Shown one piece after another: positions 4,491 to 30,154 of a stretch of 64,000 nucleotides of DNA. Origin of the DNA: a virus (Duplodnaviria > Caudoviricetes). Where the stretch lies: positions 15,817-79,816 of IMG/VR virus record IMGVR_UViG_3300046615_000768. One strand, written 5' to 3'. Position numbers and translations under genes: made by a program. How positions within the stretch are numbered: position 1 is the first letter of the stretch; each line of letters begins with the position of its first letter. The notes under the pieces are model-generated. The model saw only the letters and a list, made by a program, of their open reading frames with translations. It made no database searches and was not told where the DNA came from.

Positions 4491-4764
4491 CACCAGCAAT
4501 AAGACAGCGCACTGGTCGGATCGGAAGACGGCAGCGGTGCGTAGTGAGGCCCCTACTGTGGGATCTGTTTCTGAAACAGGGGCGATCGGCGGCGAAGACA
4601 GCACCGATGAAACGAAAGGCTGTCACGTCATGCGGCTCCGTCGGAGGGGAAGCGTGTAAAGGCAGGCGTAGGAAGGCTACGTCTGCCCACCATCAGAGGC
4701 AACGGGTTTAGCAGGCGGTAGCACAGAGCTAGAAGGCATGCAGTACCACTAACCAGGGGAACAA

Positions 4765-27308: not shown

Positions 27309-28346
27309 ATGGCAGACAGCGCTATCCAACCGGACGTGCAGGAAGCAGCAGCAACCGTCGTAACCGAAGTACCGAAAACCCCACGCGAGCTGGCTCTTGA
27401 ACAGCTCGAACAGCGTCACCAGCAGCAGATGGCCGAATCGAACGGCTACGAGCTGCCGATGGACGACGACGATCCGGCGCCGGCGCCGCAAGCACAGCCC
27501 GAGAAGGTCGACCAGCTCGCCGCGCAGATGGCCGACCCGGTCGTGACCGAGACGCCGGACCGTGTGCGCATCAAGGTCGACGGCGTCGAAACCGACGTGC
27601 CGCTCGATGAAGTGGTGCGCCAGTACCAGAAGCACAGCAGCGCGGACCGCCGCCTGGCCGAAGCGACGCGCCTCCTGCGCGAAGCCGAAGCCACCCAGGC
27701 ACGGATCGCACAGGAAGCGCAGGAAGCACAGCTGCGCGCGCAGCAGAACCAGCAACAGCCGCAGCAGCAGGCGGCAGCATCGGAAGCAGGAACCGACGCT
27801 CCAGAGACGGAAGCGTCAGGCAAGGAATTCCTCAAGGCCCTCTTCGAGGGTGACGAGGAGAACGCGTTGGCAGCGTTGCAGAAGGTTGTGGGAGGACGGC
27901 AGCAGGCGCAAGCGCCCGCGCCCACCCTCGACATCGACCAGATCGCACAGGCCGTCACGCACCAAGTGCAGCAAAAGCTCGTCGTAGAGAGTGCATTGAC
28001 GCAGAACCAGCAGACGTACCCCGAGTTGTATAGCGATCCCGATATGGAAGCCCTCGCCCTCACCAAGATCCAGCGCCTGCGCGAGCAGACCGGCACCGAT
28101 TTTCTCAGTGCCCTGGACACCGTGAGCCGCGACATGGCAACCAAGTTCGGATGGAGCGCGCATGCAGACCAGGGCCGACAGGCTGATCCTGCACCGACCA
28201 CATCGAACCGAACGGCAAAGCTGGATGCAAAGCGACAGATCGACAACGTCTCGTCGGTCAACACAAAAACCACGAGCAGCGAAGTGCAGCCCGAAAATCC
28301 AAGCGACGTGATCGCGGCGATGAAGGCGGCACGCGCGGGCGCGTGA
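27309..28346 (+). CDS. Capsid scaffolding protein
   Basis: Acidic/Gln-rich coiled coil; IKVDGVE..VPLDEV...YQK motif; directly before the capsid gene. Confidence 0.8.
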   Translation: MADSAIQPDVQEAAATVVTEVPKTPRELALEQLEQRHQQQMAESNGYELPMDDDDPAPAPQAQPEKVDQLAAQMADPVVTETPDRVRIKVDGVETDVPLDEVVRQYQKHSSADRRLAEATRLLREAEATQARIAQEAQEAQLRAQQNQQQPQQQAAASEAGTDAPETEASGKEFLKALFEGDEENALAALQKVVGGRQQAQAPAPTLDIDQIAQAVTHQVQQKLVVESALTQNQQTYPELYSDPDMEALALTKIQRLREQTGTDFLSALDTVSRDMATKFGWSAHADQGRQADPAPTTSNRTAKLDAKRQIDNVSSVNTKTTSSEVQPENPSDVIAAMKAARAGA

Positions 28347-28375
28347 TCCATCTTTCTTACTAGGAGTACACAATC

Positions 28376-30086
28376 ATGGCAGGTCAAGTCTGGCTCACCA
28401 ACAGCCTGGGTAAATGAAAGCTGCCCCGTCGCCGAGCAATCGGTGACTGATAATTGCGTGAATTGACAGGGAACCCCGACCGCGTAAAGGCGAGGGCAAT
28501 CTGCAGCCAAGCGCCGCGCAAGCGGTGAAGGTTCAACGATCATCCCCGAGGGGGGAGTAGGGCCAAGTGGCCCGAAGCGCGCAACGTCCCAAGCGGACGA
28601 TGAAATGATCTGGTCTTGCAGGTAACTGCAAGCTGCCGATGTGGGAATCGGCGGCGCCGGCGTAACGACCCGGCGTGAACTCATCAGGGCTATATGTGGT
28701 CCCCCAACCTCTCCAAAGTGCTGCGCATGGCAGTGCAGCCCCTCACCAAGTTCCGCCAGTTCAGCGACATCAAGGATGCCGCTGTCCAGGGCAAGGGCAT
28801 GGGCGAGGCGTTCCATTAACATACTGGTGGAACTAAAACCGACTCTGATTGACTTCAACCCCCGGCAGCGGGAAAGAAGGGGCAAGCAAGCCGCAAGGCT
28901 GTGCAGCCTGAGAGACTAAGCGAGTTGGCCCCGGCAACGGGGATGCGATAGTCCGAACACGGCATATAACCTGATGAAAGCCGTGAGGTGGCAGAAATGA
29001 CCACCCGCCAGCGTCAACCACGCTGGTCATCAAGTAACAGACTGTGGAACGTTTACAGCGATGTGGCAACGCAAGGCACCACCCTCACCGAGGGCGTCGC
29101 CATGCCGACCACGAACTTCGTGATCACGCAGGGCACGATGACGGTCACGGAACTCGGCAATAGTGTTCCGTACAGCTCCAAGCTGGACGACCTGTCGGAG
29201 CAGCCGGTCAAAGAGATCATCTCGAAGGTGTTGAAAAATGACGCGAAAAAGGCGTTCGACACCGCAGCCGAGGCGCAGTTCCGCCTCACGCCGCTGCGCG
29301 TCGTGCCAACCGGCGGCACCTCCACCAGCTCGGTCACGTTGACCACCAACGGCACCGCCGCTGCGGCCAACAACGTCGCTCTGGGCAAGAACCACGTGAA
29401 GTCGATCGTCGACATCATGAAAGAACGAAACGTGCCGCCGTATCTGCAGGACGACTACATTTCGCTCGCCCACCCGACGACCTTCCGCCAGGTGAAGAAC
29501 GATCTGGAGCAGGTCCACCAGTACGTCGATCAGGGTTTCCAAATGATCCTGAACGGCGAGATCGGCCGATACGAAAGTGTCCGCTTCGTGGAGCAGACCA
29601 ACATCAGCAAGAGGGGCTTCGCATCGGGCGCCTCGAACTGGGCGTATTTTTTTGGGGCCGATACCGTGGCAGAAGGCATCGTTATTCCTGAGGAGATGCG
29701 CGGGATGATCCCAGGCGACTACGGTCGTCAGCGTGGCGTGGCATGGTACTACTTGGGTAAATAACACTGCCCCGTTCTGGCGAAAGCCAGGACTGATAAC
29801 TTCGTGAACTCAGGGGAACTCCCACCCGCACCATGCGGAGGACAATCCTGATCTGAGCCCCGCAAGGGGAAAGAGCAACGACCATCCCGGAAGCGGGAGT
29901 AGGGCCAAGCGGCCCGAAGTGCGAAGCGCCTTCACTGGCGATGATATGGTCTGATCTTGCAGGTAACTGCAAGCTGCCGAGAGGCGGCGCAGGGAGTAGC
30001 GACCCGGCGTGAACATAATGGGTTTCGGTATCGTCCACACCAACCCGCAGCAGTCGCGGATCGTGATGTGGGACTCGACGACCTAA
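28376..30086 (+). CDS. Major capsid protein (resembles N4-gp56 family), spliced: join(28376..28411,28688..28816,29045..29758,30021..30086), 314 aa
   Basis: AGGAG RBS; spliced product MAGQVWLTNSLG|GYMWSPNLSKVLRMAVQPLTKFRQF...GEAFH|WNVYSDV...GEIG.YE.VRFVE...DYGRQRGVAWYYLG|GFGIVH...WDSTT* is one continuous frame. Confidence 0.9.
28412..28687 (+). ncRNA. Group I self-splicing intron 1 (276 nt, IA2-like, no ORF)
   Basis: Exon ends in U, intron ends in G; P1 GGGU/GCCC; P7 GAUCA(28538-42)/UGAUC(28606-10); P7.1/P7.2 hairpins; P9 CUUGCAG-GUAA-CUGCAAG. Confidence 0.9.
28817..29044 (+). ncRNA. Group I self-splicing intron 2 (228 nt, no P7.1/P7.2, no ORF)
   Basis: P1 UUCCAU/GUGGAA(28827-32) with U.G at the splice site; canonical GAGAGACUA...AUAGUCC P7 (28914-18/28949-53); terminal G. 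Confidence 0.9.
29759..30020 (+). ncRNA. Group I self-splicing intron 3 (262 nt, paralogue of intron 1, no ORF)
   Basis: P1 GGGU/GCCC(29769-72); P7 GACCA(29880-84)/UGGUC(29947-51); same P7.2 and P9 as intron 1; terminal G. Confidence 0.9.
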
Positions 30087-30105
30087 CAGTCGTCGGCGTC
30101 ACCTG

Positions 30106-30137
30106 AAAGCCTGTCCCTTCGGGGGCAGGCTTTTTTT
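30106..30137 (+). terminator. Rho-independent terminator after the capsid gene (possibly bidirectional)
   Basis: AAAGCCTGTCCC-TTCG-GGGGCAGGCTTT plus T run. Confidence 0.85.
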
Positions 30138-30154
30138 ACAGCTTCACCAGACAA

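Follow-up and report, generated by a model that had tools for sequence, protein, structure and literature searches.

We analysed a 64,000-nucleotide stretch of phage DNA (hereafter the window), which is part of a 79.8-kb IMG/VR provirus record and carries a major capsid gene (28376-30086, plus strand) split into four exons by three introns. Introns 1 and 3 of this gene are group I introns that resemble each other and occupy two look-alike positions, referred to here as site 1 and site 3. As described below, each of them belongs to a lineage that holds the same site in other prophages, and it is most likely that this prophage obtained both by homing or recombination at the DNA level. The parts of the gene are as follows (ORF, open reading frame).

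28376-28411, plus strand: exon 1, 12 aa (MAGQVWLTNSLG), 3' end CTGGGT
28412-28687, plus strand: intron 1, 276 nt, IA2-type group I intron without an ORF, site-1 lineage; Rfam 51.2 bits
28688-28816, plus strand: exon 2, 43 aa
28817-29044, plus strand: intron 2, 228 nt, group I-like, unrelated to introns 1 and 3, without P7.1/P7.2; guide GUGGAA with UUCCAU
29045-29758, plus strand: exon 3, 238 aa, body of the N4-gp56/HK97-type capsid protein, 3' end TTGGGT
29759-30020, plus strand: intron 3, 262 nt, IA2-type group I intron without an ORF, site-3 lineage; Rfam 52.9 bits
30021-30086, plus strand: exon 4, 21 aa plus stop

When the four exons are joined, the spliced mRNA measures 945 nt and encodes a 314-aa capsid protein, which is colinear without gaps with uninterrupted homologues found in viral contigs (for example L003, 96.8% over residues 1-314). 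Because of this colinearity, the three intron borders are fixed to the base. Further support for them was provided by DNA contigs of intronless relatives from a rhizosphere metagenome run (X1), in which each intron is absent, with ends that coincide with these borders or lie a few bases away; those of intron 2 were drawn from protein colinearity together with the contigs that skip it. Exon 3 matches TIGR04387 (the N4-gp56 capsid family) with an E value of 1.6e-13, albeit at 50.7 bits, which is under the model cut-off of 60. It also gives weak matches to Pfam capsid families and has 406 relatives in viral contigs.

Run X1 contains 82% of the sampled words of the stretch and is probably its source sample; no RNA run was listed as containing the stretch. 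Over window positions 28300-30150, depth in this run reaches about 254 in a contig of a related intronless allele, versus about 7-12 for the intron-bearing contigs. As both allele types were assembled there, donors and possible recipients for homing are present in one and the same run. Directly 3' of the capsid stop codon (30097-30138), a GC-rich hairpin is followed by a T run, and this element is probably an intrinsic terminator; a weak Rfam match to a toxic sRNA family (20.3 bits versus a cut-off of 50) spans the hairpin and the T run only.

Structure of introns 1 and 3 and their insertion sites

The original prediction, made from the letters of the window, had placed two look-alike introns at 28412-30020, and the Rfam matches, the borders and the shared motifs all bear this out. 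Both introns match the Rfam model RF00028 above its gathering score of 50 (28402-28632 at 51.2 bits and 29749-29973 at 52.9 bits). The motifs quoted as common to them, namely CTGCCCCGT, GACTGATAA, GGAGTAGGGCCAAG, the 26-mer TCTTGCAGGTAACTGCAAGCTGCCGA and GACCCGGCGTGAAC, have exactly two copies each in the 64-kb window, one in either intron. Aligned with each other, the two introns are identical in 187 of 276 columns (68%; 68.5% pairwise), and their optimal global alignment contains 201 matches versus 141 +/- 5 in shuffles. They are clearly homologous, both of the IA2 type and with the same guide. Intron 1 opens with AAA TGA and intron 3 with AAA TAA, which places an in-frame stop in each, and their 3' ends read CAG and AUG, with a terminal G in both. 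In P1, the exon end GGGU/ (a slash marks the splice site) is paired with UGCCC, leaving a U.G wobble at the 5' splice site of both introns, and this pairing is unchanged across eight introns. The main structural elements are located as follows.

28419-28426, plus strand: intron 1 guide, AGCU (P10, with GGCU of exon 2) overlapping UGCCC (P1, with GGGU/A)
29766-29772, plus strand: intron 3 guide, ACU (P10, with GGU of exon 4) overlapping UGCCC (P1)
28543-28556 and 28560-28573, plus strand: intron 1 P7.1 and P7.2, between the P7 5' strand (28538-28542) and P3' (28578-28584)
29885-29898 and 29902-29915, plus strand: intron 3 P7.1 and P7.2, between the P7 5' strand (29880-29884) and P3' (29920-29926)
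29973-29988, plus strand: intron 3 P9.1, a short hairpin (loop GAGA); the ORF of HNH-bearing site-3 relatives lies at this position

Helices P1, P2, P3, P4, P6, P6a, P7, P7.1, P7.2, P8 and P9 were laid out on eight site-1 and site-3 introns using alignments based on hidden Markov models. Over these eight introns 98.7% of the cells are paired and 24 of the 56 pairs have changed on both sides, a result reached by 0 of 500 shuffles; in a control in which the 3' partner was shifted by 1-3 columns, only 34-41% were paired. Compensatory changes were found in P2, P3, P4, P6, P6a, P7, P7.1, P7.2, P8 and P9, and the conserved P3-P8 core with its P3/P7 pseudoknot is present. Hairpins P7.1 and P7.2 between the P7 5' strand and P3' are the hallmark of subgroup IA2. 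As both hairpins could be located in either intron, with pairing kept through compensatory changes, the IA2 fold proposed earlier stands, and introns 1 and 3 look like working ribozymes. Neither of them (276 and 262 nt) contains an endonuclease ORF or any ORF of its own, and the P9.1 hairpin of intron 3 may mark the position of a lost endonuclease gene. The P4 5' strand of intron 1 (window 28464-28469) reads UGACAG where the other site-1 introns have UGCAG, and the additional A would protrude from the helix as a bulge.

That both introns sit after TGGGT at look-alike LG/G sites and use the same P1 guide was likewise confirmed. TGGGT occurs twice in the spliced mRNA, exactly at the sites of introns 1 and 3, and GG follows it each time; the two Leu-Gly/Gly sites correspond to residues 11-13 and 292-294 of the capsid protein. 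Outside TGGGT/GG.T the flanks are alike only at the level of chance (8/18 positions upstream, TGGGT included, and 7/18 downstream, by hand count). Thirty-nine intronless alleles were compared at these sites. GGGT is found in two of them at site 1 and in one at site 3, most having CTC GGC or CTG GGC, and the Leu-Gly-Gly motif is retained at both sites in nearly all; the allele forms at the intron sites are TGGGTGG and CTCGGCGG. Because GGGT is so rare in intronless alleles, the look-alike nucleotides are tied to the introns, and those that match the guide either travel with the introns or were selected after their arrival. Since both introns use the guide UGCCC, each would splice only from a GGGU/ site.

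It had also been suggested that the guide covaries with each 3' exon. The pairings in question, AGCU with GGCU (4 bp) and ACU with GGU (3 bp), are indeed present, but the covariation comes down to a single change in the window's intron 1: the site-1 relatives in contigs L009 (GGCU exon) and L010 (GGAU exon) have an ACU guide, which leaves only 2 bp of P10. The arithmetic of joining exon 1 to exon 4 was correct, as 12 + 21 aa are connected in frame to give 33 aa. On this arithmetic, exon skipping through the shared guide would be possible.

Two site-specific lineages and their relationship

A survey of homologous capsid genes for single-site occupancy had been suggested along with the original prediction. 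It was carried out on the 80 closest capsid homologues in viral contigs, 23 homologues from genomes and the loci fetched by intron patterns, and it turned out that one site filled alone is the rule among relatives. Site 1 is occupied in L009, L010, L012 and L013, whose capsids are about 83-88% identical to that of the window, and none of the four has an intron at site 3. The latter is filled in L086, L022, L189, L143, L469, L464, L463 and L084, with capsid identity ranging from 90% down to 37%. In four of these carriers (L022, L189, L143 and L464) site 1 was seen to be empty, and at least five prophages in all have site 3 filled without site 1, among them some with capsids only about 50-62% identical to the window's.

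The introns themselves follow the same division. The nearest relatives of intron 1 are the site-1 introns of L009 (82%) and L010 (79%), those of intron 3 are the site-3 introns of L086 (91%), L022 (80%) and L084 (71%), and each site formed a clade of its own in all trees built. In the site-3 introns of L143, L189 and L464, P9 is followed by an ORF for an HNH_3/His-Me endonuclease that has a helix-turn-helix at its C-terminal end. A search of the 79.8-kb provirus record gave no HNH, HNH_3 or RVT_1 (reverse transcriptase) match; GIY-YIG and LAGLIDADG were not searched there. A metagenome scan with the guide and P2 pattern returned one contig, L463. When the introns were compared by BLAST with 401 sampled genomes of the order containing Pseudothauera (L209), intron 1 gave two short marginal matches and intron 3 none. 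The closest sequences in isolated phages are introns of the DNA polymerase region in Xanthomonas phage CP1 and Ralstonia phage BOESR1 (74-78% over about 150-180 nt). A pattern of the form GGGTAAAN{5,6}CTGCCCC was abandoned as an intron finder, being too loose (116 matches, mostly due to chance).

Are the two lineages related by a move from one site to the other? We lean towards the view that they are two related site-specific lineages of one phage intron subfamily, one at each GGGU/ site, which would descend from one old ectopic move between GGGU/GG sites. The direction of this move was probably from site 3 to site 1, because the site-3 lineage has retained endonuclease genes and is spread over a much more diverse set of capsids. 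Modules may later have been reshuffled among introns of the family, above all around P4. Several observations argue for such a relationship. A pattern made of the guide, P2 and J2/3 (20 fixed bases) has no matches in 2.9 million viral contigs other than the capsid introns of site 1 and site 3, and a second pattern, running from P7' through P9 to the start of P9.1, finds in the same contigs only these introns and one unplaced locus, L468. P2, which is not constrained by the target, hardly differs between site-1 introns and the site-3 introns of L022, L143, L463 and L464. Finally, in a tree from which P4-P6 and the guide columns were left out (173 columns), the two lineages are sisters with an ultrafast bootstrap (UFBoot) value of 71.

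Other results weigh against a move between the sites. The UFBoot value is modest, and maximum-likelihood trees of the whole length or of the core group the site-1 introns with those of a different structural gene of phages (L259, L291, L279, L314 and L253, hereafter the L259 group) and the site-3 introns elsewhere. Forcing the two lineages to be sisters costs 22-41 log-likelihood units, with p values of 0.06-0.10 in the approximately unbiased (AU) test, so that sisterhood is neither rejected nor favoured. Both kinds of tree are biased, as the patterns used to fetch the comparison set were derived from the introns under study. Convergence could also give the same guide, since any intron at a GGGU/ site requires UGCCC. 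As regards the common origin assumed in the original prediction, it is thus plausible in view of the shared modules and of the sisterhood outside P4-P6, but the whole-length and core trees do not join the two lineages.

The strongest alternative is that two different IA2 introns from the large pool in GC-rich soil phages were recruited independently, each invading a GGGU/ site, with a convergent guide and no move between sites. On one hand, this would agree with the separation seen in the whole-length and core trees, and the core of intron 1 is 78.5% identical to that of L259 versus 71-75% to site-3 introns. Repeated invasion is moreover common in this gene family, which has at least nine capsid insertion sites, with the subfamily recognised at six or more of them. 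On the other hand, sisterhood was not rejected by the AU test and is recovered once P4-P6 is left out, the near-identity of P2 is not demanded by the target, and both module patterns match almost nothing but these two lineages. We regard independent recruitment as possible, though rather unlikely.

The conflicting tree signal is located in and around P4. Sisterhood was rejected when P4-P6 was taken by itself (AU p 0.003). A swap of the P4-P6 domain was considered as well and is not claimed here, as the AU p value rose from 0.003 to 0.43 after the fetch-pattern columns and their helix partners had been dropped. A mosaic was encountered in the site-3 intron of L469 (6551-6810, minus strand), whose 3' half (P8, P9, a short P9.1, P9.2 and the tail) is of the site-3 type, while its P2, P4-P6 and P7.1 are of another type and make up a foreign 5' half. 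Judged by its modules, this intron shows that module exchange occurs among introns at one site in this family.

How an old move between the sites might have taken place is a separate matter. The likeness of the flanks is limited to the length of P1 plus P10, which fits reverse splicing and off-target cutting by an HNH endonuclease equally well. Under either of them only insertions adjoining GGGU would survive, because only such insertions splice. Sequence alone cannot separate reverse splicing from relaxed nuclease targeting. Support for reverse splicing is circumstantial and comes mostly from rDNA, the transposition route that it offers has no direct experimental evidence, and relaxed nuclease specificity has been named as an alternative (PMC3984707).

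Arrival of both introns in one prophage

Whatever the origin of the two lineages, their presence in one gene is most likely a result of homing or recombination at the DNA level. Exon 1 of the window (36 nt) does not differ at all from that of the intron-1 carriers L010 and L012 and has two differences from that of L009, while 3-12 differences were counted in 17 intronless alleles. The whole coding sequences of the window and of these three carriers are only about 80% identical. Because exon 1 is identical in carriers while the coding sequences diverge, transfer at the DNA level, with co-conversion of the flanking exon, is indicated. A similar picture was obtained for intron 3, which is 91% identical to that of L086; the 480 nt of upstream exon are 81% identical, and the 45 nt adjoining the site contain three differences. 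In view of this flank identity and of the single-site occupancy among relatives, the introns seem to have entered separately, as DNA, from intron-bearing alleles. For introns without a nuclease of their own, this would have involved either a nuclease acting in trans or general recombination.

One could argue that ongoing gene conversion between introns 1 and 3 explains their identical 26-mer (P9/P9.1) and 14-mer (P9.2). The window's intron 1 does have a P9 hairpin and a P9.2 3' strand of the site-3 type, unlike other site-1 introns. However, at 34 informative sites its 9 site-3-like states are scattered rather than clustered (permutation p 0.77), and we consider gene conversion to be very unlikely.

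Least credible of all, and to our minds close to negligible, is the earlier reading, in which guide-directed reverse splicing carried one ribozyme to a second site of the same phage mRNA and no endonuclease took part: the common P1 guide, the filling of both TGGGT sites of the mRNA, the flank likeness confined to TGGGT/GG.T and the provirus record devoid of an HNH or HNH_3 match would suit it, but the introns share only 68% identity with each other versus 82% (intron 1) and 91% (intron 3) with orthologues at their own sites in other prophages, single-site occupancy is usual in relatives, HNH_3 endonucleases are encoded by three site-3 introns, the record has no reverse transcriptase match, and the identity of exon 1 among carriers points to DNA. 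It had been stated beforehand that a grouping of the two introns with separate lineages, each holding its own site in distant phages, would speak against this reading. Such a grouping is what was found, intron 1 falling with L009, L010, L012 and L013, and intron 3 with L086, L022, L189, L143, L464, L463 and L084.

The capsid gene family as an intron hot-spot

Intron 2, which gave no Rfam match even at an E value of 10, belongs to a second intron family of the same gene. With the guide GUGGAA it lies after UUCCAU (residue 55) in the window, L010, L012, L013, L022 and L212. A sister form with the guide GCGGAA lies after UUCCGU (residue 35) in L009 (2208-2440) and L030 (intron end at 2440), and the difference between the two guides corresponds to a compensatory replacement of A-U by G-C in P1. 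For most of their length the two forms resemble each other, and the residue-35 form was also seen at a contig end in run X1.

Taken over all homologues, insertions in the capsid gene were found after residues 12, 13 (L463), 35, about 53, 55, 93, about 260, about 275 and 293, which makes at least nine sites (the homologues concerned are L009, L030, L063, L361, L217/L465, L464, L220, L212, L084 and L463). About one in ten capsid homologues has at least one intron, and some of these introns contain HNH or LAGLIDADG-like ORFs. Many viral contigs (L413, L452, L361, L391, L369, L386, L291 and others) have 2-4 introns of the IA2 subfamily within 1-2 kb, and multi-intron phage genes seem to be common in metagenomes. 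It is conceivable, though we hold it to be doubtful, that the capsid family preserves a record of two ectopic transpositions of group I introns, each directed by the guide, within a protein-coding gene of phages.

Much of what lies at this locus is of kinds already known, namely IA2 phage introns, several introns per late gene and related introns at look-alike sites. Passages in two papers (PMC11878797, PMC3073962), which cite Landthaler and Shub (1999), describe orf142 of Staphylococcus phage Twort as a late structural gene with three group I introns that resemble each other, and report exon skipping. As far as those passages go, the two cases are alike in that a late structural gene has three group I introns, some of them mutually similar, whose shared guides permit skipping. 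They differ in that the gene studied here belongs to a GC-rich prophage, probably of a betaproteobacterium, encodes the major capsid protein and not a tail tube protein, and has only two related introns out of three; skipping is documented for orf142, whereas for the capsid gene it is predicted from reading-frame arithmetic. As for the host, a full-length match to the Rfam Betaproteobacteria-1 RNA (RF02932, 85.5 bits) at window positions 4505-4628 hints at a betaproteobacterium, in agreement with capsid relatives in Zoogloea, Pseudothauera, Aromatoleum and Paraburkholderia genomes.

The T4-type IA2 introns (td, nrdB and sunY) belong to a heterogeneous group of IA2 phage introns (PMC11878797, PMC3984707). 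Introns 1 and 3 share with them the P7.1 and P7.2 hairpins between P7 and P3', the location in a phage protein-coding gene, the in-frame stop directly after the 5' splice site and relatives with and without a homing endonuclease gene, but have no close sequence match to T4. Related group I introns at two rRNA sites are the standard circumstantial case for transposition by reverse splicing (Hausner et al. 2014, PMC3984707). The capsid introns resemble them in being related introns at two sites that are similar only over the few guide-pairing bases; unlike them, they reside in a phage protein-coding gene and have endonuclease-bearing relatives, which makes off-target homing an equal candidate here. 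Homing in trans of an intron whose own endonuclease is defunct is described for T4 mobE and I-TevIII (PMC2790892). It offers a similar DNA-level route of movement for introns without a working nuclease, although, unlike in the case of mobE, no free-standing HNH or HNH_3 gene was found in our provirus record (GIY-YIG and LAGLIDADG were not searched there).

These results show that phage structural genes, and not only genes of DNA metabolism, can be heavily colonised by introns, and gene callers would fragment capsid genes of such an intron-rich kind. The capsid gene family may serve as a system in its own right, with at least nine insertion sites, intron forms with and without endonucleases and both kinds of allele in a single run. 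It also houses two intron families that are unrelated to each other, each with two look-alike sites, and in one of them the guide shows a compensatory change. It has long been an open question how group I introns come to occupy new sites, and this gene family offers a compact natural set for weighing an RNA guide against a relaxed nuclease. If the family does record guide-directed transposition, and if the introns moved via RNA, it would be the first tractable phage system for a reverse-splicing pathway that lacks direct experimental support.

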